Below, in pieces: positions 14,871 to 48,118 of a stretch of DNA of 64,000 nt (within the stretch, counting starts at the first letter, position 1; the number at the start of each line of letters is the position of its first letter). Source of the stretch: Thainema sp. (GTDB lineage Bacteria > Cyanobacteriota > Cyanobacteriia > Phormidesmidales > Phormidesmidaceae); assembly GCA_052168235.1 (NCBI GenBank), contig JBQLZK010000012.1, forward strand, positions 44,038 through 108,037, given 5' to 3'. The notes beneath the pieces were generated by a model, which saw only the letters and a program-made list of their open reading frames with translations, was not told where the DNA came from and did not search any database. The position numbers and the translations under genes are program-made.

Positions 14871-16151
14871 TTAAGCGCTAATCGTAGACTTGTACATTGC
14901 TTCGCGGGTGGCGACCATACCCTGGACGAGGCGATCCATTTCCTCGCGGGTGTGGAGCGCATTCGCAGTCACGCGGATGCGGGGCTTGGCAATGAACCAG
15001 ATGGGAGAAACCCAGATGCCGTGCGTGTCCATTAGCTGGCGAGCAAAAACCTTAGGATTAATATCCACAGGTAGCAGAATGGGTAACACATTGGTTTCAC
15101 CAATGACTTCGAAATCATTGGCCGCAAGCTGCGATCGCAGATAGCGAGTATTTTCCTGCAGGCGCTGCACCAGTTCCGGGGACTGACGCACGCGGCGAAT
15201 GCTCTGGAGGGCGGCTGCCGTTAGCGGTGGCGCGAGAGAAATCGTGCCAATCGACGTAGGCGATACGTTCAATAGCGGCTTTAGCTCAGCGGTAGCGGAA
15301 CTAATCGCAGCCCCAGCAGACGCGGCAAACTTCGAGAATGTGGTCATGATGATTGGCTCAACGCCGCGATCTAGCGCATATTGAGGCGTGATGCCAAAGT
15401 GCTCATAAACACCGCGTCCAGTTGCACCAATGGCTCCACTAGCATGGGCTTCATCCATCACTAAAGTTGTATCCTCATAGGCCGAGAGGATATCAATCAT
15501 CTCCGGCAGGGGCACAACGTCCCCATCCATTGAGAACACAGCGTCAGAAATCACCAAAATGCGATCGCCCGGGCGGGCATAACGCTTCAGCTTGCGGGCC
15601 AAATCTTCCATATCGCAGTGGCGGTAGGCCCGCACCCGTACCCGTGGGCTATGGCCAAATAGCTTGCCAGAGCGTGTACCTGCGTTTGTAACAGCGGAAA
15701 TAATGCAACCGTGGTTGAGCACATCCGTCAAAATCAGCGTTTCGCGGGTGTGCTGAAATCCCGGCACGGGAATGGCTAAATGACAATAGGCATCCATCAG
15801 CGCCTGTAGCGCCATCCACGCATTCAAAAATAGCTGCGTGTGCGGTAAATGCTTAAAGTCCGAAATTTCATCTTCGAGTTGGCGATGGAGATCGATGCGA
15901 CCGCTCAAGACAGAGCAAGAGCTATTGGATGTCCCGTAGTGCTGAATCGAATCAATTGCAGCTTGCTGAACGGATTTGTCTTGAACTAACCCGAGGACAT
16001 CGTTGGTGCAGAAGGTCAGCACGCGACGCCGGATGCCAGTGGCAGATTCCTCAATATCGACGATGTTGCCATGTTTGGCATGACAAATGTATTCGTCCGG
16101 ATCAAGGCCACTTTGATACCACTTTTGGACGTATTCTTTAACAACTTGCAC
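14871..16151 (-). CDS. PLP-dependent alpha-oxoamine synthase family enzyme (BioF/Kbl/Spt-like)
   Basis: FCTNDVLGL, NHGCII, HCDMEDL, DAVFSMDGD, DEAHASG and TFSKF (PLP Lys); GAGAGGAG RBS before the GTG. Confidence 0.85.
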   Translation of the reverse strand: MQVVKEYVQKWYQSGLDPDEYICHAKHGNIVDIEESATGIRRRVLTFCTNDVLGLVQDKSVQQAAIDSIQHYGTSNSSCSVLSGRIDLHRQLEDEISDFKHLPHTQLFLNAWMALQALMDAYCHLAIPVPGFQHTRETLILTDVLNHGCIISAVTNAGTRSGKLFGHSPRVRVRAYRHCDMEDLARKLKRYARPGDRILVISDAVFSMDGDVVPLPEMIDILSAYEDTTLVMDEAHASGAIGATGRGVYEHFGITPQYALDRGVEPIIMTTFSKFAASAGAAISSATAELKPLLNVSPTSIGTISLAPPLTAAALQSIRRVRQSPELVQRLQENTRYLRSQLAANDFEVIGETNVLPILLPVDINPKVFARQLMDTHGIWVSPIWFIAKPRIRVTANALHTREEMDRLVQGMVATREAMYKSTISA

Positions 16152-16929
16152 AGCTCACTCCTCTCACCTAGTTCCTCAATCGCCAAGCTCTGTGTTTCAT
16201 GAAATCCAAATCGTTTCAATGTAATGAGATCGCTCGGTATTCTGCTCTAACGTATCGGATGATATCCCGCTTGGATCAGGGTGATCCTACAGATTTTTAA
16301 CTGGCACACCACTTATCCAAAGGCACATGCTACAAAGCAGCTTGCTATAGAATGCCCCTTATTTCCTAGAGGGGTAGAACCCTGTCAGAGTAAGCACCAA
16401 TTATAGAACCGGACGATTGTATCAATCCTTTCTGGCTTCTTTACAAATGTCAACTATTGCTAAGCATACGCTGATTTCGACCGATAGGCTATAAAACGCT
16501 CGAATCTAGCGGGATTAGGGGATTTACGTGCTCTGGAGCTGAGCTTGACGACCTGTCGCATTTATTTCTTAAGGCACAGTTATCGTTTAGCTCCAAAAAA
16601 TTATTGGGCAGTAGTCTGTCAACTTTATTTTGCTGAGTTTGATGGCTGGTGTGCTGAACGAAGCGCAGCCCATCAGCCTGAATATAACAGCGGTAATTTA
16701 GGTCGTGATTTTTGAGGATACCAATCCGTGTTCTTGGAACATATCCAAGTCCAAGGGTTGTGGATTAAATGGCCTGTAAACCCTTCCATCCTTGGGGGCA
16801 TGGCATTATGTGTCGCTGCCACAAAGACTTCACCTGATTAAATCCGCGTTCCTGAGTGGATTGCCTTTAGAGATAAAGTGTCTAATATGAATGTGAACGG
16901 CGCGATTGAGGAAGTACGGGGGAAATACT

Positions 16930-18334: not shown

Positions 18335-18471
18335 AACTTTGTCTTAAATAAGATACTGCTTCTCTATTACAGCGTGGATACATTGCCCCTACATCATCCC
18401 AGTGTGATAGGTCAAGTCAACTTGATGGCTTCAAAAGGGAGAAATATAGCGCCGTCATTTTGATTGCAGTA

Positions 18472-18546
18472 TTTAAACCAAATCCAGGTTGAAAAGTAGA
18501 GCTTTCCCTCAGGGAAAGCTCTACTTTTCAACCCTGTTGGGGTTTA
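18472..18546. repeat. 75-bp hairpin element, copy 1 (copy 2 at 42613-42687)
   Basis: 22-bp arms GGTTGAAAAGTAGAGCTTTCCC-TCA-GGGAAAGCTCTACTTTTCAACC; 73/75 identical to copy 2. Confidence 0.92.
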
Positions 18547-18871
18547 TACAATCTGATGTTTCAACATTTGAAATTCAACAGTTGAAAATTTTCTATTGGT
18601 TTTCTGTTGGTTTGATTTTGGAGCGCTGCTTATCTGTCACTTTACAAACAGTTTCGCAGTATGAATTTTGAGTATCACCTTTTTGTCAATGTAGCGGATT
18701 ATACGAAGCGGGATCAATGATAGTAATTATTGCCCTTGGGAATAATAATTGAGAACGCTAGTTTTACCGAATTAAATCGCCTGCATCTGCTCATTTCAAC
18801 TGACTATCAGCCGACTATCAGTGATTCGGTATACGAGATTAAAGTCGTTTGCATAAGAGTAATTACGTAGA

Positions 18872-21800
18872 ATGATGTTAGGCCACTCTTTCAGTCACAC
18901 CACTATTCATGAAGCGATTGAACACCAAGCGCGCCAAACACCGCAGGCTAAAGCAATCATTTGGCAACAAACGAGCTTAACCTATGCAGAACTTAATCAG
19001 CGGGCCAATCAGTTAGCCCACTATTTAATTCATTCAGGTGTTCAACCAGAATGTTTTGTAGGAGTTTGTTTAGAGCGATCGCTTGATATGGTGGTGGCGC
19101 TGTTGGCGATTCTTAAGGCTGGAGGGGCTTATGTACCTTTGGATCCCACCTATCCTTCCGATCGCCTCGCTTTCATTATTGAAGATACTCAGCTTCCTTT
19201 GGTCATTACTCAAGTGAGCCTGCAACCGTGTCTACCGGAGTATCAGGCCAAAGCTATCTATCTAGATACCGAGCAGTCAACGCTGGAGCAGTTTTCGATC
19301 CAAAATCCAGACACTTGGCAAAATCCGGCTCAGGGCGTGAACCCTCACAACCTGGCTTACGTGATTTACACCTCTGGGTCAACTGGCCGACCCAAAGGTG
19401 TCGCGATTGAACACCGCAATGCGATCGCACTGATTGACTGGGCACGAGAACTCTATACTTCTGAACAGTTGGCTGGCGTACTGGCCGCAACGTCACTCTG
19501 CTTTGATTTGTCGATTTTTGAACTGTTCGTTACGTTAAGCTGTGGCGGCACGGTGATTTTAGCCAAGGATGCTCTCCAGTTGCCCCGTCTACCGGCTGCG
19601 AATCAGGTGACGTTAATTAATACAGTGCCATCTGCGATCGCAGAACTGTTGAGGATTGACGGTATTCCAACTTCTGTTAAAACCATTAATCTTGCGGGCG
19701 AACCACTACAAAATACGCTAGCCCAGCAGCTTTATCAGCTTGACCACGTTGAGCAAGTTTATAACCTATATGGGCCGTCCGAAGATACCACCTACTCTAC
19801 TGTCGCCCTAGTCCAAAAAGGCGCAACAACTTCGCCCTCAATTGGCCGTCCGATCAGCAATACCCAAATTTATCTGTTAGACAGCCGCCTCAACCTGGTG
19901 CAGGAAGGAGCGGAAGGCGAAATCTATATCAGTGGAGCAGGCATTGCCCGGGAATATCTCAACCGACCGGATTTAACCGCTGAACGATTTTTGCCCAATC
20001 CCTACAATAAGCAAGCACCCCATGATCGACTCTACAAAACCGGGGATTTAGCGACTTACTCTGCCGACGGCACACTCAACTACTTAGGGCGAATTGATCA
20101 TCAAGTCAAAGTGCGCGGTTTTCGGATCGAACTGGGTGAAATTGAGTTTGCGCTGAGCGAGTATCCCGACATTCGTCAGGTTGTCGTCGTGGCCCGAGGT
20201 GATGCACCAGACCGCACGAATAAGCGATTGGTTGCCTATGTTGTACCAGATGTTGTACCAGAGATAAATGAGCATCTAACAAGCATTACACCTCGAAGCT
20301 TACGAGACTATCTTCAGCAGAAACTCCCAAACTACATGATCCCGTCAGCGTTCATGCTGCTGGATGAGATGCCTTTGACCTTAAATGGCAAGGTCGATCG
20401 ACGGGCTCTCCCTGTTCCAAAATGGTCGCGTATGGAAGAAGGCACCTATGTTCCTCCCAGCCGTCCACTAGAGATTCAACTGGCGTACATTTGGTCTCAG
20501 CTACTGGGTGTGGAGCACATTGGCATCCATGACGGATTCTGTGAGTTAGGTGGGCATTCACTCCTCTCGGTTCAGCTCATGGCGCAACTCCAGCAAACTT
20601 TAAATGTTGAAGTTCCGTTGGAAGTCTTTTTAGAAACTCCAACCATTGCAGGACTAGCCCAAGCGATTGAATATCTTCAGCAAGGCCAGCAATTATTCAC
20701 TTCGATTGATAGCATCGAAGCCAGTATTCAGCTTGATGCAAGGGTTCAACCTCAGCATCAGTTAACTGCACCCGTTATGAACTTCTTTTTAACAGGTGCG
20801 ACTGGTTTCCTAGGCGGTTTTATTCTGCATGAGCTGCTTGAACAGACCCATGCCGATGTTTATTGTTTGGTGCGAGCCGATAGTTTGGAAGAGGGCCGAG
20901 CCCGATTGCAACAGGTGCTTCAGCGTTATTACCTGTGGGAAGAAGCCTTCGACTATCGCATTATTCCGGTACTGGGAGACTTGAGTAAGCCAGAACTCGG
21001 AATTGAGCCTGCTCTGTTTCAGCGGCTGAGCGAAAAAATTGATGCCATTTATCACTGCGGTGCTTGGGTCAACATGGTTTATCCCTACGCCACTCTGGAG
21101 CCTACCAATGTTAAAGGAACGCAGGAAGTTTTGAGACTAGCCAGTCAAAGCCATCCTAAGCCCGTTCACTATGTCTCTACGACCGATGTGTTTTCTACTG
21201 CTGCCCGAGCAGGTCTGCATTCAGTTTGTGAACTTACCCCCATTGGGCCAGCTAAGGCTCTGTATAGCGGCTATGCTCAAACGAAGTATGCGGCAGAACG
21301 TCTCGTCATGGCAGCGCGCGATCGCGGTTTACCGGTTGCGATTTATCGACCTGGAAATATCATTGGTTCTCAACAAACGGGGATCTGTCAGACCAGTGAC
21401 TTCGTCGCAAAGCTACTCAAGGGCTGCCTGCAAGCCGGAGCTGCTCCCCAGATTGAAGCAAGTTTAAACCTGTCGCCGGTTGATTTCGTCAGTCGCACCA
21501 TCGTGCGGCTATCTTGCCACACCCTCCCGCAGGGACAAGCATTTCTGGTCGTTAATCCTGATTCGTTGTCCTGGAGCCAATCTATAGACCGGTTGAGACA
21601 AGCTGGATATTCTTTGCAAACCCTACCCTATGAGGCTTGGTACAGCCTCCTTCTGAAGCAGATTGCTCAAACCACTTCTATAAAAGACCCCGATAGTAAC
21701 GTATTGGCTCCTTTGGTTTCACTTCTCACTTACCAAGGCTTTGTACAAAAGCTGTTAGGAGCCCTTGAGTTTGATCAATTGAGGCAGCTTAGTCAATTAA

Positions 21801-21919
21801 CTCGCTATGCGATTGAGTATCCTCCATCAGCCATAGATTCACTCGATTTATATATTTCTTACTTGAGTCAGTGTCGTTTCCTCCCCAAGCCAGTGCTTTC
21901 TAGCCAACTCATGGCTTGA
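18872..21919 (+). CDS. Stand-alone NRPS-like enzyme: adenylation - PCP - terminal thioester reductase (A-T-R)
   Basis: A motifs YTSGSTGRPKG, NLYGPSE, YKTGDL, GRIDHQVKVRGFRIELGEIE and NGKVDR; PCP LGGHSLL; R domain LTGATGFLG and GYAQTK; no condensation domain. Confidence 0.93.
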   Translation: MMLGHSFSHTTIHEAIEHQARQTPQAKAIIWQQTSLTYAELNQRANQLAHYLIHSGVQPECFVGVCLERSLDMVVALLAILKAGGAYVPLDPTYPSDRLAFIIEDTQLPLVITQVSLQPCLPEYQAKAIYLDTEQSTLEQFSIQNPDTWQNPAQGVNPHNLAYVIYTSGSTGRPKGVAIEHRNAIALIDWARELYTSEQLAGVLAATSLCFDLSIFELFVTLSCGGTVILAKDALQLPRLPAANQVTLINTVPSAIAELLRIDGIPTSVKTINLAGEPLQNTLAQQLYQLDHVEQVYNLYGPSEDTTYSTVALVQKGATTSPSIGRPISNTQIYLLDSRLNLVQEGAEGEIYISGAGIAREYLNRPDLTAERFLPNPYNKQAPHDRLYKTGDLATYSADGTLNYLGRIDHQVKVRGFRIELGEIEFALSEYPDIRQVVVVARGDAPDRTNKRLVAYVVPDVVPEINEHLTSITPRSLRDYLQQKLPNYMIPSAFMLLDEMPLTLNGKVDRRALPVPKWSRMEEGTYVPPSRPLEIQLAYIWSQLLGVEHIGIHDGFCELGGHSLLSVQLMAQLQQTLNVEVPLEVFLETPTIAGLAQAIEYLQQGQQLFTSIDSIEASIQLDARVQPQHQLTAPVMNFFLTGATGFLGGFILHELLEQTHADVYCLVRADSLEEGRARLQQVLQRYYLWEEAFDYRIIPVLGDLSKPELGIEPALFQRLSEKIDAIYHCGAWVNMVYPYATLEPTNVKGTQEVLRLASQSHPKPVHYVSTTDVFSTAARAGLHSVCELTPIGPAKALYSGYAQTKYAAERLVMAARDRGLPVAIYRPGNIIGSQQTGICQTSDFVAKLLKGCLQAGAAPQIEASLNLSPVDFVSRTIVRLSCHTLPQGQAFLVVNPDSLSWSQSIDRLRQAGYSLQTLPYEAWYSLLLKQIAQTTSIKDPDSNVLAPLVSLLTYQGFVQKLLGALEFDQLRQLSQLTRYAIEYPPSAIDSLDLYISYLSQCRFLPKPVLSSQLMA

Positions 21920-21941
21920 GCTTTCTTCAATGCAACAAGCT

Positions 21942-21984
21942 AAAGGTTTACTTACTGAGACATCACAGCAGTCAGTAAACCTTT
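21942..21984 (+). terminator. Possible terminator hairpin after the A-T-R gene
   Basis: AAAGGTTTACT ... AGTAAACCTTT stem running into TTTTT. Confidence 0.45.
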
Positions 21985-22194
21985 TTCCAAACACTTTTGA
22001 ATCCAATATTTACCGATATTTATATGCGGCCAAACAATTTTCTCTGCGCAATGTTATTTCAAAAGTCAACTTGGGTACTTTGAAGGTGAGCAAGAGAGTC
22101 AGTTGATGCCGTGGCTCAAGCCCATGCCAAGGTATCAACTGAAGCGTCATACGAATAAAAGTTGAAAATAACTTACCGAGTTTGTGGCGTAACC

Positions 22195-25125
22195 ATGAAA
22201 AAAATCGGCTTTTCAAAAGAGAATTGGGACGGAATCCATAATGCCCAGCAATATAAAGGATCCATCACTCGAAAGACTCTGGTTACGACCGCTATCAGTA
22301 TCAGTGTTGTGATCGTTGCTTCTACGGGCATCGCCTATCGGCAACTTGTTTCAAGGATCACAGATGAAACCTTAGCTCAAGTTGAAAAGTATGCTCAGCT
22401 CCGAGCAGAACGGGAACGAGCCGTTTTTCAACTAGCAGAAGATAACCATATTTTGCTCAAAGAGGCTTTACTCACCGAGCTTGAACAAAATCGCGATCGC
22501 GCCAGTAGCATATCTGCATTTAACCAGCTTTTTGAAAGACAGGCAGACGGTACATTTCGCAATCGAGAAGAATTCTTTAACGTCGAAGAAACCCCTGGTA
22601 TTTTCTTAGGTGCCAACGTTAACGTTGACCAAAATATGCAGCACCGAGTTATCTCATACTTCAATGTTCTAGAAGCCTATGGGCCAGCTTGGCGAAACCG
22701 GTTTGTCAATACCTATATGCAGATTCCAGAGAATGGAATTGCAATCTACATGCCAACCTATCCCTGGGTTCAAAATGCGCCATCTGATCCTGCATTTAGA
22801 GTCACGGATGATGAGTCATTCTATATCACGGACAAGGAACATAACCCAATTCGCGAGACAGTATGGACAGGTATTTACTATGACCAAGTTGCACGTGCTT
22901 GGATGGCATCCTGTGTGACTCCAGTTGATGTGAATAGTCAGCATATCGCCACGATTGGGCACGATATTCTAATTACTGAACTGCAAGATCGAACGATTAA
23001 TGAAACCCTAGAGGGAACTTACAACATGATCTTTCGGGCAGATGGTCGTTTGGTGGCCCACCCCGAATTAATGGATGAAATTCAACAGAACCGAGGTAAA
23101 TTTAATATCTCTCAGTCTGACGATTCTCGGCTTCGCCAAATCTTTGAACTTGTAACTCAAAAGTCAGACGGTCAAATTATCTTAGATCACGTTGAACATG
23201 ATGAATACTTAGCTGTTACTTCAATCGAAGGCCCCGATTGGTATCTCGTGACGGTTTTTCCAAAGGCTTTAGTTCAGCAACAGGCATTCATAACAGCACG
23301 CCTAGTTTTACTCCTCGGTTTCTTTTCGTTATTGATTGAAGTCATCGTTATTTTCTTCATTCTGCGACGCCAAATTTCCACACCGCTTGCTAGTCTAATG
23401 GCAGCAACTGAAAGTGTTGCTAGTGGAAATTTGGACATCGATCTCAATACAGATCGTCAAGATGAGCTTGGTCGTTTGGCTTTTCTCTTCAACAAAATGG
23501 CCCAGCAGTTAAAGGCATCATTTGAAAAGCTAGCCAAATCAAATGAAATACTTGAAGCTCGTGTTGAAGAACGTACGGCTGAATTAAAGCAGGCTAAGGA
23601 AGTGGCTGATGCTGCTAATCAAGCCAAGAGCGAGTTCTTAGCAAATATGAGTCATGAATTAAGAACACCGCTAAATGGCATTTTGGGCTATGCTCAAATT
23701 TTAAGACGTTCTGATACATTTACGGCTGATGAAAAACAAGGATTGAATATTATCTATCAGTGTGGATCGCATCTGTTAACGTTGATTAACGATATTTTAG
23801 ATCTTGCAAAAATTGAAGCTCGAAAGATGGAGCTACATCCAACTCATATTCATTTTCCATCTTTTCTTCAGGGTGTATACGAAGTTTGTCAGATCAGAGC
23901 TCAGCAGAAACAGATCGATTTCACTTATCGGTCTGATCCAAATCTGCCAACTAGTATTTTATCCGACGAAAAACGACTCAGGCAGATCCTGATTAATCTC
24001 ATCAGTAATGCAATTAAGTTTACAGAGTATGGCTCTGTCGTATTTAGCGTACAAGTTATCGATTCCGTTGCTCAATGTGCCAATAGTCCATCTCAATTGA
24101 ATCCAGAAATAGCGGCTGTAAATAAATCTACAGATCAAAGCGATATATTGAAAGACTCAAATACGTTAAGAATTCGCTTTGAGGTGCAGGATACTGGCGT
24201 CGGTATGACCGATGAACAAGTGCAAAAAATCTTCTTGCCATTTGAGCAGGTTGGCAACGTTAAGAAGCAATCTGAGGGGACTGGTCTAGGGCTTTCTATT
24301 AGTCAAACGTTTGTTCAAATGATGGGTGGTTCATTGAATGTTAGGAGTCAGCTAGGGCAAGGTAGTACGTTTTGGTTTGACGTTGACTTTTATGAAGTTG
24401 AGGCATGGGATGAACAGTCAAAAATCACATCGAATTTAGGCAAGGTTACTGGCTTTGAAGGATCTGAGATACCTATCTTGCTCGTTGATGATCGGTGGGA
24501 AAACCGAGTTGTCATTCGAAAACTCCTGGAACCACTCGGATTCAAGATTACAGAGGCTGAAGATGGTCAAGAGGCTTTAGAAAAAGCAGAGCATTTTCTT
24601 CCTCATTTAATTATTACTGATTTAGCTATGCCAGTTATGGGTGGGTATGAGTTGTTAAAAGCACTTCAACAAACTGATGTATTAAAAGATATACCTGTCA
24701 TTATTTCTTCTGCAAGCGTTTTTAATTCAGAACAATATAAAAGTATGAAAGCAGGTGCAAAAGCCTTCTTAGCTAAGCCTATTCAGGCGGAAGAACTATT
24801 TGATGCGCTAGAAAAATATCTAAACATTAAATGGATCTATGAAACCGAAAATCTAGCATTAATAGGTCAAGCAGATCATCCTTGTTCTGATATTTTTAGT
24901 ATTGGAGAGGATGTTTTAGTTCCATCTCATGAAGAACTTATTCAGCTTTATGAATATGCTCAAAAAGGTCGCATACTGAATTTAGAGCAGAGAGTTGAAG
25001 AGCTAAGATTGGAAAATCAAGAACTGGCCGCGTTTGCCAGCCAAATTCGTATGTTAACTCGGAACTTTAAACTAGAAAGGATTCAAGATTTGTTGAGGGA
25101 TTATCTCAATGTTGATCCGAAATAG
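22195..25125 (+). CDS. Hybrid sensor kinase: TM - Cache-like periplasmic domain - TM - HAMP - HisKA/HATPase - receiver
   Basis: Two TM segments, WTGIYYD Cache-like motif, [40 protein letters not shown] and receiver LLVDD...TDLAMP...KP. Confidence 0.92.
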
Positions 25126-25206
25126 TGCCGTGAAGCAATTTTTAAGTGTATCCCTGCTGAAAGATATTCTGATGAATGAAAATAAACATAAAGTTTGGTG
25201 GATAGC

Positions 25207-26652
25207 ATGGTTGATACCGTATGTGATCTTATTCTAATCGTGGATGATAATCCTACTAATCTTGAGGTTCTCTCTAAGTCAATTAGTAGCACAGGTTATT
25301 CTATTGCCGTTGCTACGAGTGGTGAGAATGCTCTTAAGCAGATAGGTTACGAACGACCGTCTCTCATTCTGCTAGATGTCATGATGCCTGGTATCGATGG
25401 CTTTGAAACTTGTCGTCGCCTTAAAGCCGATCCAACAACCAGTGCTATTCCAGTTATTTTTATGACGGCTTTATCAGACATTGAAAACAAAATTAAAGGT
25501 TTATCTTTAGGCGCAGTTGATTATATTACCAAACCTTTCCAGCAAGAAGAGGTCATTGCTCGGATTAAAATTCATTTAAAGATTCAAACGTTAACTCAAA
25601 CCCTTGCCTGTCAAAATGAACTGTTGCGACAAGAAATTCAGCATCGAGAGCAGGCTGAGGCACAGCTGCAATTACTTAATCATGAATTAGAAGTACGAGT
25701 TGCAAATAGAACAGCAGAATTATCTACTGCGCTTCATCAGCTACAGCAAACGCAGGTACAGCTTGTCCAAAAAGAAAAGCTATCAACACTGGGTGAACTG
25801 GTTGCAGGAGTCGCCCATGAAATTAACAATCCAATTGGTTTTATTGCCAATAATTTAGAACCGGCCATGGAATATGTGGCGGATATCGCGCAGGTTATTC
25901 GCCTTTATCAACAGAATTATCCGAATCCAAGTATTGAAATCTCCCGATTTGTAGAAGATATTGATCTTGATTTTGCTTTGGATGATTTAGCAAAGCTTTT
26001 AGCTTCTATGCAACTTGGGACAGAGCGCATTCGGGAAATATCGATGTCCCTGCGCAATTTTTCTCGCTCGGATACAAAGTGTTTGATGCCTGTTAATATT
26101 CATCAGGGATTGGATAGTACACTGCTGATTTTGAAACATCGATTAAAAGAAAATGAGTATCGGCAGGCTATTAGCGTCGTTCGAAATTACGGAAATCTGC
26201 CCGAAATAACGTGTTATCCGGGGCAGATTAATCAGGTTTTTATGAATCTTTTATCTAATGCAATTGATGCATTAGATGAAGGTAGTCAATCTAATCAAGT
26301 TGTCACCAATACCAATTCAACTCATATATTACCGATTAGTTCTAAGTCTTTAGAACCCACTATTTGCATTAGCACAGAGTATGCTGGCGGTAATTGCGCC
26401 ACAATTCGCATTATCGATAACGGCCCTGGGATGGCAGATACCATTCGCGATCGCTTATTTGAGCCTCTATTTACTACTAAAAAAGTAAATCAGGGTACTG
26501 GTTTAGGACTGTCGATTAGCCGTCAAATTGTGGTTGAGCGACATGGGGGGCAGTTGACGTGCCAGTCTCACCCTGGCAAAGGCGCTGAGTTTGTGATTGA
26601 TTTACCAATCAATGCTGAGGTTGCAGCCAGTCAAGCACTACTTGTTTCTTAG
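25207..26652 (+). CDS. Receiver - histidine kinase hybrid
   Basis: ILIVDD...LLDVMMP...KPF, GVAHEINNP, NLLSNAIDA, DNGPG and GTGLGL. Confidence 0.92.
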   Translation: MVDTVCDLILIVDDNPTNLEVLSKSISSTGYSIAVATSGENALKQIGYERPSLILLDVMMPGIDGFETCRRLKADPTTSAIPVIFMTALSDIENKIKGLSLGAVDYITKPFQQEEVIARIKIHLKIQTLTQTLACQNELLRQEIQHREQAEAQLQLLNHELEVRVANRTAELSTALHQLQQTQVQLVQKEKLSTLGELVAGVAHEINNPIGFIANNLEPAMEYVADIAQVIRLYQQNYPNPSIEISRFVEDIDLDFALDDLAKLLASMQLGTERIREISMSLRNFSRSDTKCLMPVNIHQGLDSTLLILKHRLKENEYRQAISVVRNYGNLPEITCYPGQINQVFMNLLSNAIDALDEGSQSNQVVTNTNSTHILPISSKSLEPTICISTEYAGGNCATIRIIDNGPGMADTIRDRLFEPLFTTKKVNQGTGLGLSISRQIVVERHGGQLTCQSHPGKGAEFVIDLPINAEVAASQALLVS

Positions 26653-27581
26653 GCACCGAGAATTTGGTCGTCTAGGGAGAAGTCAACCTCAGCTTGATCT
26701 CGGCCAGATGAAAGATAGTCGTTCTGGAAAGAATCCTTTAAGCCTGAAACGAGATCAAACTGGGGTTGCCAATTGAGTTCGGTTTGAGCTTTATGAATAT
26801 CGGCAAAAAAGTGTTGTACTCGCATTGGAAATGCTTTGCGCTTGCCAAAATTAAACTGCTTCGGATCGTAGTGAACCAGTTCCAGCGCAGCGGGATCTTT
26901 TCCGGCTGCGATCGCACATGCCTTTGCTAAACCATCAAAGGTCACGTAGCGATCGCCAGAGATATTGTAAATCTGTCCAATAGCTTGAGAATTACCGAGT
27001 ACAGCTGCCATTGCTTGGGCTAAATCCTGCACATGGCCGAGCTGAGTGATGTGCATACCGTTGCCGGGAATGGGCACAGTGCGATCTCGGATAACCCGGT
27101 CAAAGAACCAGGCTTCGACATCGTTGTAATTCTGTGGGCCGTAGATGTAAACCGGACGAACAGAGGTGAAGGGGATCTTCTGTTCCGCTAAGTATGTTTC
27201 AGTCTCAAATTTTCCTTTGTGGCGACTGTTCGGATCGACGGCATCGGCTTCCCGATGGGGTAACTGGTCGGTCTTGAGATACACACCCGCAGAACTAACA
27301 TAGACAAAATGCTGTACCCGATCGCCGAACAGTTCAACCAAAGGCTTTGTGTCGCTCAGTTCTCGCCCGTTGTTGTCAAAAATGGCATCAAATGATTGGC
27401 CGGATAGCTTATCTTTAAGCTGTGCTGCATCTTTGCGATCGCAGTGAATTTGCTGGATGCCCTCGACTGGAGCAGGCTTGTTGCCGCGATTGAGTAAAAC
27501 AACCTCATGGCCTTGCTCAACCAAGATCCGAGTGAGGTACACACCAATAAAGCGAGTACCACCCATAACTAAAACTCTCAT
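26649..27581 (-). CDS. NAD-dependent epimerase/dehydratase family protein (CSP41-like)
   Basis: MGGTRFIG, DNNGRE, SSAGVY, RHKGK and RKAFPMR. Confidence 0.9.
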   Translation of the reverse strand: MRVLVMGGTRFIGVYLTRILVEQGHEVVLLNRGNKPAPVEGIQQIHCDRKDAAQLKDKLSGQSFDAIFDNNGRELSDTKPLVELFGDRVQHFVYVSSAGVYLKTDQLPHREADAVDPNSRHKGKFETETYLAEQKIPFTSVRPVYIYGPQNYNDVEAWFFDRVIRDRTVPIPGNGMHITQLGHVQDLAQAMAAVLGNSQAIGQIYNISGDRYVTFDGLAKACAIAAGKDPAALELVHYDPKQFNFGKRKAFPMRVQHFFADIHKAQTELNWQPQFDLVSGLKDSFQNDYLSSGRDQAEVDFSLDDQILGA

Positions 27582-46657: not shown

Positions 46658-48118
46658 ATGCAGCGTTCTCCGTCTCGCCAGCGTTTAAATACGCGATCGC
46701 GCTTTGGCCTCAAAACCACCCTTGTGGGCGCTATCTTGCTCATCGTCAGCGCCACGGCCACGGTCGTTTATATTCCTTGGTGGTTGATGTCCCAAAGAAA
46801 TATCAAAACTATCGTCAACCAGGTCAACAAAGAAATCATTCAGGGTACCTCCCAAGAAGTGGAGCGTCTATTTGCTTCCAACGAATCTGCCCATCAGCTT
46901 ATTCTCAGCAGCATCAACCGCAACTTGCTGACGCTAGATCGGGCTGAAGAGCGAGAAAACTATTTAATTAGTGTCCTAGAGGCCAATCCAAACTTTACTT
47001 GGGTGCAGTTTGGCTATAGCAATGGCGATTTTATTGGGGCCCAGCGTACGACGGATGGACTAATCAAGTATCACAATCGAGACTGGAATCCAGAAACTCA
47101 AAAAACGGTTGCTACAATCCGCACGTACCAGAATGATGAAGGCAACCTGGAACTGCTGGATCAGGAAATCGCCGAAAGGAATCCGCCCTACTATGCACCG
47201 GATCGTCCTTGGTATCAGAATGCCGTCGAGAAACAGGGTGAAACAGCCTGGACTATCTACATCTACAGTTCGAGTAGCACTCCGGGCATGGATTCGAGTG
47301 TCGTGCTTGAACGAGATGGTGAGGTACTTGGCGTCATTGGTGTTGGGATGGAACTGACCCAGCTATCTGAGTATTTATCGCGACTCCAAGGCGATCGAGC
47401 GGGTGAAATTTTCATCATCAATGCCCAGGAAGAGCTGATTGCAGCAAGTAACCCAGCTGCTGTTTTGCCCGAAGCTGGGATGGAAACCAATATGCAGCAA
47501 TTCAACAATACTGATGATTTAATGCTGCAGTTGGCTTACCAGGGGTTTCAGACCGAGAATATTACAAACCAGCTGGTTAATGAGCTAGAGAAAGGTGAGT
47601 CACAGAAATTTGTCTACGCTGACCCCGACTCCGGTGAAAAGTATTTAATTTCATTTGCTCCCATTGGGCGAAACAACTGGATTTTAGGGACTATCATTCC
47701 GTCTGATAGCTACTTGGCCACTATTCGTCGCAATCAGCAGATCCTACTGGTGGCGATTCTGTTTTTTATCATTGGTGCAGCGGGCATTGCCATCCTGATT
47801 TCCGATCGCCTAATTGCTCGGCCTATTCTCAAAATTGCCAATATGGCCACCGACATTGAAACTGGCCAGTTCGAAGTGCATCAGCTCGCTGAAGTCGCTG
47901 AGCGCCAGGACGAACTGGGTCGGCTAGCTCGCGTGTTTCAAACAATGGCGCAGCAGGTTTATGAGCGGGAATACAAAATGCGGCAGCAAATTGAAGAACT
48001 CGGCTTCAAGGCCGATCAAGCCGAACTACAGCAGCTCAATCTCGATCAAGTTGACAGCTACCAGCAGTTGCTAATCAAATCCCGCCGCCTGCGCGGCAGC
48101 CTACAGCAAAAGCGCTAA
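46658..48118 (+). CDS. TM - dCache - TM - HAMP protein with no catalytic output domain
   Basis: YYAPDRPWY Cache motif, [19 protein letters not shown] and a short coiled-coil tail ending at the stop. Confidence 0.85.
   Translation: MQRSPSRQRLNTRSRFGLKTTLVGAILLIVSATATVVYIPWWLMSQRNIKTIVNQVNKEIIQGTSQEVERLFASNESAHQLILSSINRNLLTLDRAEERENYLISVLEANPNFTWVQFGYSNGDFIGAQRTTDGLIKYHNRDWNPETQKTVATIRTYQNDEGNLELLDQEIAERNPPYYAPDRPWYQNAVEKQGETAWTIYIYSSSSTPGMDSSVVLERDGEVLGVIGVGMELTQLSEYLSRLQGDRAGEIFIINAQEELIAASNPAAVLPEAGMETNMQQFNNTDDLMLQLAYQGFQTENITNQLVNELEKGESQKFVYADPDSGEKYLISFAPIGRNNWILGTIIPSDSYLATIRRNQQILLVAILFFIIGAAGIAILISDRLIARPILKIANMATDIETGQFEVHQLAEVAERQDELGRLARVFQTMAQQVYEREYKMRQQIEELGFKADQAELQQLNLDQVDSYQQLLIKSRRLRGSLQQKR

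Follow-up and report, generated by a model that had tools for sequence, protein, structure and literature searches.

Introduction

The CqsA/CqsS system of Vibrio and the LqsA/LqsS system of Legionella each place an autoinducer synthase beside a membrane hybrid sensor kinase. Chemical signalling between cyanobacterial cells is poorly understood, and to our knowledge no widespread synthase/receptor pair has been established in that phylum. Here we describe three consecutive genes of the cyanobacterium Thainema sp., contained in a stretch of 64,000 nucleotides (contig JBQLZK010000012.1, positions 44,038 to 108,037; below, the window, whose numbering is used unless another source is named). On the + strand they encode a stand-alone enzyme of the non-ribosomal peptide synthetase (NRPS) type with adenylation (A), carrier (T) and thioester reductase (R) domains (P0001, 18872..21919), a membrane hybrid histidine kinase with a dCache sensor (P0002, 22162..25125) and a receiver–histidine kinase (P0003, 25195..26652). 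A preliminary description of the window had proposed that the enzyme makes alaninal, alaninol or 2,5-dimethylpyrazine and that the adjacent kinase senses the product. The observation behind this proposal was confirmed and its interpretation is partly supported; on balance, we lean towards the view that these genes together make up a self-contained synthase/receptor cassette for small-molecule signalling.

By analogy, the logic of this putative cassette resembles that of the Vibrio and Legionella pairs, in that a single enzyme acting on an amino-acid-derived substrate would be encoded beside a hybrid kinase that starts a phosphorelay. Both protein families differ, however. The synthase is an NRPS-like A-T-R enzyme, whereas CqsA and LqsA are pyridoxal phosphate (PLP)-dependent acyltransferases; the receptor would be a periplasmic dCache domain, whereas CqsS and LqsS are multi-pass membrane sensors; and one would expect a small polar amine, rather than a long-chain ketone, as product.

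Each half of the cassette also has described relatives. ATRed of Xenorhabdus indica has the same A-T-R architecture without a condensation (C) domain and, in the part of the report available, frees an amino aldehyde that can dimerize to a pyrazine (PMC7586950). It belongs to another phylum, that part of the report names no receptor, and the comparison with P0001 concerns architecture and release rather than substrate. PtNRPS1 of the diatom Phaeodactylum, an A-T-R1-R2 reductase, makes tryptophanol in a physiological, signalling-type role that invites comparison with P0001, but it is a eukaryotic protein with two R domains, uses another amino acid and is assigned no receptor in the available text (PMC13194791). 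On the sensor side, the dCache_1AM proteins PctD, PacA, McpX and mmHK1S-Z3 are described, in the available text, as having a dCache fold that descends from sensors of amino acids and as lacking the carboxylate-binding Arg, as does P0002; the main text, as available, contains no occurrence of cyanobacteria (PMC10589655). A full-text literature search, of incomplete coverage and with the datasets of PMC10589655 outside it, returned no paper on a cyanobacterial or bacterial A-T-R enzyme tied to a sensor kinase, and a 2014 phylum-wide survey (PMC4247773) nowhere uses 'histidine kinase' or 'sensor'.

Results

Single-module A-T-R genes adjoin sensor kinase genes

Loci encoding relatives of P0001 were collected by whole-genome searches, used in place of a peptide-pattern search with P0001 that gave mostly A domains of large NRPSs. 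In 41 related genomes, every match that extended over the R domain was taken, giving 17 loci (L081–L097). From a 401-genome sample of the phylum, 16 matches with an open frame of ~970–1390 aa and four of a ~1450-aa class were added (L098–L117). Loci were thus chosen by enzyme similarity and open reading frame (ORF) length, blind to their neighbours, and their gene maps were drawn with BLAST and a sensor hidden Markov model, plus Pfam. Related genomes are non-independent, and the synteny counts below are given without a P value.

A sensor kinase gene lay next to the A-T-R gene, or one gene away, at 24 of the 30 single-module loci, the window excluded (L081–L088, L090–L092, L098–L103 and L105–L111). 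These paired loci were spread over nine GTDB families, and all but one had a dCache-type sensor as judged by Pfam or by homology to the P0002 sensor (23/24; the sensor region of L107 had no Pfam match). Terminal C-A-T-R modules of multimodular NRPSs served as a comparison, and none of seven (L095–L097, L114–L117) had an adjacent sensor kinase. Among the unpaired loci, L104 has its kinase 10.7 kb away (L129) and comes from a genome of the same genus as L103, at L089 a FIST protein and a kinase are encoded 3.3 kb upstream, and L093, L094, L112 and L113 have no sensor kinase nearby. The window's own genome (G000) contains 23 dCache_1 matches in ~22 genes over 7.5 Mb, from which the chance of finding a dCache gene within two genes of a random gene was estimated at ~1%. 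Close spacing of synthase and kinase genes (6, 16, 17, 39 or 40 nucleotides, or an overlap) was found at L081, L107, L098, L085, L084, L103 and L105, and the gene order of the window recurs in Lyngbya confervoides BDU141951 (L001). At L103, a DDE transposase gene (L103:5817-6656) interrupts the Cache kinase, leaving a sensor fragment of 360 aa and a kinase of 604 aa.

The reverse search, in which the same 401 genomes were searched with the sensor region of the window, gave 33 matches in 28 genomes. Thirteen of these sensors were at least 55% identical to that of the window; one lay at a contig end, and 11 of the 12 others had an A-T-R gene immediately upstream, in one case with a PilZ insert. 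Among 19 sensors at 33–48% identity, two adjoined an A-T-R gene and one lay within 11 kb of one. A database search with the sensor returned 190 clusters at E ≤1e-10, and all source names given were cyanobacterial. Co-occurrence of A-T-R and Cache-kinase genes, which the preliminary description had made the test of its own proposal, was therefore borne out in both directions: a synthase gene adjoins a putative receptor gene across species, as expected of an autoinducer pair.

P0001 has the features of an alanine-type A-T-R enzyme

P0001 (1015 aa) was divided into domains with Pfam and NCBIfam. The A domain (residues 17–507; 18920..20392, + strand), made up of AMP-binding (17–363) and AMP-binding_C (423–507) matches, scored 281 bits with PF00501 and 428.5 bits with TIGR01733 (cut-off 317.4), and its translation contains the adenylation motifs YTSGSTGRPKG, YGPSE, YKTGD and NGKVDR, with the A10 lysine. 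The carrier domain (residues 540–599; 20489..20668, +) matched PP-binding (PF00550) at 57 bits and has the phosphopantetheine serine motif GGHSL. The R domain (residues 639–1003; 20786..21880, +) matched NAD_binding_4 (640–877) and TIGR01746 (318 bits, cut-off 213), with a Rossmann motif TGATGFLG and the YxxxK motif as YAQTK. Pfam found no Condensation domain (PF00668) in P0001, nor in the neighbouring ORFs included in the scan, in keeping with the earlier account of a lone A-T-R enzyme lacking a C domain, and the catalytic motifs of P0001, P0002 and P0003 are all intact in the translations. Enzymes of the A-T-R type release their carrier-bound acid in the form of an aldehyde or alcohol. The nearest solved R domain is that of MxaA (4u7w, E 1.2e-82); MxaA forms an alcohol, which offers a weak hint as to the product of P0001.

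An alignment of related enzymes, 35 in all, gave the specificity residues as D-L-F-N-N-A-L-T-Y-K, identical to those previously read by hand. Against solved structures, the pocket segment matched McyA (8jbr) with E 7e-60, the next best match having E 7e-18, and within the aligned 149-residue segment all nine code positions (D-L-F-N-N-A-L-T-Y) were identical between P0001 and McyA2. According to the available part of the report on McyA2, L-Ala gives the strongest adenylation (bioRxiv 10.1101/2023.11.13.566838). Assignment of DLFNNALTYK as an alanine code is thus upheld by similarity, and P0001 is predicted to carry an alanine-type pocket. McyA2, however, is a C-A-T-E module (E, epimerization) of a multimodular line, whereas P0001 is a single A-T-R enzyme; the same text reports that, deprived of the C domain, the A domain of McyA2 is far less active, a caveat for the C-less P0001.

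The P0002 sensor appears to retain the amino-group residues of amino-acid sensors without the carboxylate clamp

P0002 comprises, in order, a transmembrane (TM) helix, the dCache domain, a second TM helix, HAMP, HisKA, HATPase and receiver domains and a conserved C-terminal extension, as assigned by Pfam and alignment of the C-terminus. Read from a TTG codon it has 987 residues; the database gene call has 976, and an ATG at 22195 matching that call is probably the start. HisKA (81 bits), HATPase_c (84 bits) and Response_reg (85 bits) matches, together with HAMP, lie in one chain, so that by domain content, with H-box, ATPase and receiver in a single protein, P0002 classes as a hybrid histidine kinase. 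An NCBIfam match to LuxQ was weak and below cut-off. P0003 (485 aa) consists of an N-terminal receiver, a coiled coil, an H-box (AHEINNP) and an HATPase domain (Pfam Response_reg and HATPase_c). The earlier account of a Cache/HAMP hybrid kinase followed co-directionally by a receiver-kinase agrees with these three + strand ORFs and their Pfam domains. P0003 orthologues of 43–56% identity come after a hybrid kinase in L098, L100, L082, L083, L086, L087, L120 and L001; in L102 the orthologue lies upstream of the A-T-R gene instead. The extension that follows the receiver of P0002 (residues 890–987; 24829–25122) is conserved, apparently helical and ~100 residues long, and is common to the hybrid kinases of several cassette types; it has no conserved histidine and is therefore not an obvious histidine phosphotransfer (Hpt) domain.

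The periplasmic sensor spans approximately residues 62–375 (22345..23286, +). An AlphaFold2 model built with 45 homologues (mean predicted local distance difference test score, pLDDT, 92.2) shows a double PAS-like dCache fold with a long stalk helix between the two TM helices. Foldseek matched this model to solved dCache ligand-binding domains with E values down to 1e-10, the best being those of the amino-acid chemoreceptors Mlp37, PctA and Mlp24, and VIA-align gave Z scores of 17–19 to many solved dCache domains, aligning ~230–250 residues. Scores were Z 16.5–19 for binders of amino acids and of amines alike, so that the structure search does not split the two. A single-sequence search of the sensor against the PDB gave marginal matches only (E ~0.02), and a profile search was needed. 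A profile of 23 sensors matched proline-binding 7k5n, PctA, Mlp24, Mlp37 and CtaA at E 2e-8 to 3e-7; its matches to amine binders were weaker (3lib, 1e-4; PacA 7psg, 6e-4; PctD, 0.16; McpX, 0.4).

In the profile alignment, Y239, D241 and D268 of P0002 map onto Y144, D146 and D173 of PctA, and in the alignment to 7k5n, D217 or E218 stands opposite the Arg of RPWY, the position of R126 in PctA. According to the available text of a study of dCache sensors, R126 of PctA binds the ligand carboxylate, Y144 and D173 are common to amino-acid and amine sensors, and the amine sensors lack the Arg (PMC10589655). The P0002 sensor thus departs from the dCache_1AA family in the carboxylate-binding Arg and conforms to it in the amino-group residues, through Y239 and D268. 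E218, F220, Y239, D241, M248 and S250 are at least 90% conserved in the 45-sequence alignment; E218 is at least 90% conserved in the alignment of 23 homologues as well, and D268 is invariant in both. The alignments suggest a pocket, formed by D217/E218, F220, Y221, Y239, D241, M248, S250 and D268, that keeps the amino-group residues without the carboxylate clamp. The strings ESFY, WTGIYYD, WM and GHD noted previously are all present in the translation of the second ORF, and the absence of an RxWY motif stood up to alignment with PctA and 7k5n. The companion claim of a YxD...M...D amine pocket matches the published dCache_1AM motif in some respects, and P0002 may or may not belong to that subfamily. 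F220-Y221, M248-x-S250 and D268 are spaced much like F188/Y189, M215/S217 and D235 of PctD, as read from the residue numbers quoted in the available text (PMC10589655), whereas the R103/D133 insert and W155 of PctD have no reliable alignment to P0002 (E 0.16, residues 228–282 only).

The three subgroups of sensors found beside A-T-R genes all lack Arg at the R126 position, with Asp or Glu there in groups I and III and Gln in group II. As a control, albeit a small one, the other dCache domains of the Thainema genome were parsed by pattern, and seven of nine have R-P-W-Y. Another dCache kinase of this genome (G000:C53:28252-28680) has E-P-W-Y in place of R-P-W-Y, as do group-III sensors beside A-T-R genes.

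Cassette variants and co-variation of substrate code with sensor subgroup

Several arrangements of the cassette were distinguished. The order in the window, A-T-R, kinase, receiver-kinase, is shared by L098, L100, L082 and L083. In L103 and L105 the A-T-R and kinase genes are followed by a receiver and a receiver-SpoIIE gene, with a small HATPase_c_2 protein encoded upstream. L088 has A-T-R, MatE, kinase, receiver and receiver-SpoIIE genes, and L091 follows this order except that an unannotated 199-aa ORF takes the place of MatE. L086 and L087 encode an A-MT-T-R enzyme (MT, methyltransferase), a methyltransferase of the NNMT/PNMT/TEMT family, a kinase and a receiver-kinase; L084, L085 and L120 a C-A(PilZ)-T-R or A(PilZ)-T-R enzyme and a kinase; and in L090 and L092 the A-T-R gene is convergent with that of a non-hybrid dCache kinase. 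An aldehyde dehydrogenase gene lies beside the cassette in L098 (L098:10639-12108), and genes for short-chain dehydrogenases/reductases (SDRs) in L082 (L082:14609-15379), L083 (L083:14797-15521) and L092 (L092:6870-7583); these are possible tailoring or turnover enzymes for an aldehyde or alcohol. The MatE, methyltransferase, SDR and aldehyde dehydrogenase genes of the variants fit an exported amine.

The PilZ domain, which binds cyclic di-GMP (c-di-GMP), lies inside the A domain of three synthases beside dCache kinases (L084:7219-11463, L085:4899-9734 and L120:10117-13482), suggesting that c-di-GMP controls the synthase. P0048 and P0059 also carry PF07238.

Substrate codes and sensor subgroups varied together. 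Alanine-type and glycine-like codes pair with sensor group I and proline-like codes with group II, while codes with an acidic pocket pair with group III or, when the enzyme is C-A(PilZ)-T-R, with a divergent group I. Here DILQLGMIWK is taken to be glycine-like and DVQFIAHVVK proline-like, and the acidic-pocket codes are presumed to select basic substrates. This co-variation, read from aligned sequences, fits matching of ligand and receptor.

The block appears to have been gained or lost as a unit

The genome of a congener (G001) was compared with the window. DNA similarity ends near position 18445, and positions 18446-26657 have no counterpart in the congener, save scattered short matches of 65–82% identity to adenylation and kinase motifs. 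Both flanks of the block are kept there at 80–88% DNA identity, next to other regions. Absence of the block from a genome that keeps its flanks suggests that the three genes were gained or lost as a unit. The best match to P0001 in the congener is 42% identical and is the counterpart of a second, kinase-less A-T-R enzyme of the Thainema genome (contig C55, L094). At the left border of the block lies a ~75-bp palindromic, perfect-hairpin dispersed repeat (18474..18546), which matches 12 other contigs of the Thainema genome and a second site on the window's own contig (C12), most on both strands. The neighbouring genes for proteins resembling an alpha-oxoamine synthase (AONS), an alpha/beta-hydrolase, a BON protein and an SDR are conserved in the congener in the absence of the block and hence lie outside the cassette, in line with the earlier statement that the enzyme has no tailoring genes.

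The block had also been described as visibly more AT-rich than its flanks. For the kinases this was clearly so: GC contents were 0.405 and 0.408, and GC contents at third codon positions (GC3) 0.34 and 0.33, placing both at about the 3rd percentile among the genome's 2859 long ORFs (mean GC3 of the genome, 0.54). For the A-T-R gene, however, it held only mildly (GC 0.488; GC3 0.46, the 14th percentile). A scan for promoters and terminators, which was uninformative, turned up no terminator-like site on the + strand in the gaps separating the genes, and fewer promoter-like sites than shuffled sequences did.

Discussion

If the three genes do form a signalling cassette, it might work as follows. 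By similarity, the A domain of P0001 would load L-alanine onto the carrier domain, and the R domain would reduce the thioester, freeing alaninal or, after a second reduction, alaninol, in either case without the carboxylate. The small amine would reach the periplasm and occupy the membrane-distal pocket in the dCache domain of P0002, where Asp or Glu replaces the carboxylate-binding Arg. Since the conserved Asp and Tyr would hold a protonated amino group, a free amine is favoured as ligand over 2,5-dimethylpyrazine. Ligand binding would alter autophosphorylation of P0002, and the signal would probably pass to the receiver domain of P0003 and then to a response regulator encoded elsewhere. The cassette may be one 'dialect' of a cyanobacterium-wide family in which single-module synthases of differing codes stand beside differing dCache subgroups.

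A number of observations weigh against the idea that P0002 senses the product of P0001. The cassette in the window has no exporter or DNA-binding output, and its synthase and kinase differ in GC3 (0.46 versus 0.34) and are separated by 242–275 nucleotides. The Pfam dCache_1 match (PF02743, residues 148–364, 40 bits, E 4e-10) falls below the curated 45-bit cut-off, and the alignment register around R126 may be off by one residue, depending on whether the HMMER alignment or an intuitive pairing of ESFY with RPWY is followed, although the residue is acidic either way. Neither gene is confined to the pair: A-T-R genes L093, L094 (a paralogue in the Thainema genome) and L112 are orphans, L121 is a sensor-kinase pair without an A-T-R gene, and 16 of the 19 distant group-I sensors (33–48% identity) have no A-T-R gene in the flanks examined. 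The partners of alanine-type and glycine-like enzymes have a near-identical group-I pocket, in which only residue 221 differs (Y221/Q221), and that independently of the code; either the sensor is blind to the difference in product or it may bind something else. In a tree of R domains, sensor types were scattered, kinase-less and multimodular reductases were interleaved, and deep nodes were weak. The tree does not group loci by sensor type, so that the correlation between code and sensor is confounded by descent and shuffling, and with the weak deep nodes and scattered sensor types we claim no order of events.

Several of these points would be accommodated if the relationship were one of regulation only, the Cache kinase reading an external amine or other environmental cue and controlling expression or activity of the A-T-R enzyme, whose product would then serve another end, for example as osmolyte, building block or antimicrobial pyrazine, and would not be the ligand. 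Synteny alone fits a kinase that regulates the producer as well as one that senses the product. Group-I sensors without an A-T-R gene are common, and must respond to a cue available without a neighbouring synthase. Pfam assigned outputs to seven of the 16 distant ones: methyl-accepting chemotaxis protein (MCP) domains in L122, L126 and L131 (L122:8154-10154, L126:8167-10137, L131:8516-10513), GGDEF in L134 (L134:8134-10074), SpoIIE in L127 (L127:8013-10205) and histidine kinases in L123 and L128. The near-identity of the sensor pockets beside alanine-type and glycine-like synthases, and the PilZ inserts, which suggest that other signals control the enzyme, also favour regulation. On the other hand, the cassette contains no transcription factor; loss of the clamp with retention of the amino-group residues is an exact match to the change that the reductase makes to its substrate; the sensor subgroup tracks the class of substrate code; and close homologues of the sensor stand beside a synthase in 11 of 12 cases. 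We judge regulation alone to be unlikely, though it is the alternative that we take most seriously.

A metabolic role is improbable. An A-T-R enzyme that feeds an amino aldehyde or alcohol into modification of the envelope or of lipids, with kinases monitoring the envelope, would explain the lack of an exporter and output regulator in the window, the orphan A-T-R paralogues without a kinase (for example L094 on contig C55) and the glycosyltransferase, AONS-like enzyme and YceG of the wider neighbourhood. The AONS-like and other neighbours, however, are kept in the congener without the cassette and are hence unlinked to it, no lipid or glycan enzymes recur across the 30 loci, and the nearest solved dCache structures bind small ligands. 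Finally, histidine kinases are abundant in cyanobacteria, with 298 first-look P0002 candidates in the Thainema genome, and a neighbouring kinase could in principle reflect chance or faulty annotation. This we consider very improbable, as it is contradicted by pairing at 24 of 30 loci in nine families against none of seven multimodular controls, by a genome with only ~22 dCache genes and by the reverse count of 11 out of 12.

The proposed synthase/receptor cassette may also belong to something larger, although here we are tentative and regard the wider reading as somewhat doubtful. On that reading, a modular chemical language spans the phylum, in which synthases strip the carboxylate from amino acids and cognate dCache receptors, descended from amino-acid sensors through replacement of the Arg, read the resulting amines. 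Its substrates would be alanine or glycine-like, proline-like and basic, sometimes N-methylated; the same type of sensor would feed chemoreceptors, partner-switching phosphatases and c-di-GMP cyclases as well, while c-di-GMP would gate some of its synthases through an inserted PilZ domain. For the cassette reading itself, the occurrence of one sensor family on MCP, GGDEF and SpoIIE outputs is as expected of a real extracellular cue.

As it stands, the candidate is concrete, pairing an enzyme of predicted substrate with a soluble periplasmic domain of predicted ligand class, and the loci in which substrate codes and sensor subgroups shift together provide natural variants. If correct, the proposal would add carboxyl-reduced amino acids as a new chemical class of bacterial signals and signalling as a new use of NRPS-like reductases, offer a clear example of a receptor pocket whose evolution has kept pace with the chemistry of an enzyme, and aid assignment of ligands to many orphan dCache receptors.

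Additional features of the window

The AONS-like gene upstream of the block (14871-16151, – strand) encodes an alpha-oxoamine synthase of the BioF/Kbl family that falls below all equivalog cut-offs (bioF, 223 bits versus 426). It also has a weak, below-cut-off match to alpha-hydroxyketone autoinducer synthases; conserved in the congener, it lies outside the cassette. In the spacer between this gene and the hydrolase gene is a ~100-bp dispersed repeat (~16753-16860), copies of which occur in the congener too; BLAST of positions 16600-16900 returned 47 rows, including the self-match. Farther along the window, at ~47201-47692 (G000:C12:91238-91729), there is a second ORF with a dCache_1 match, 501 aa in length.

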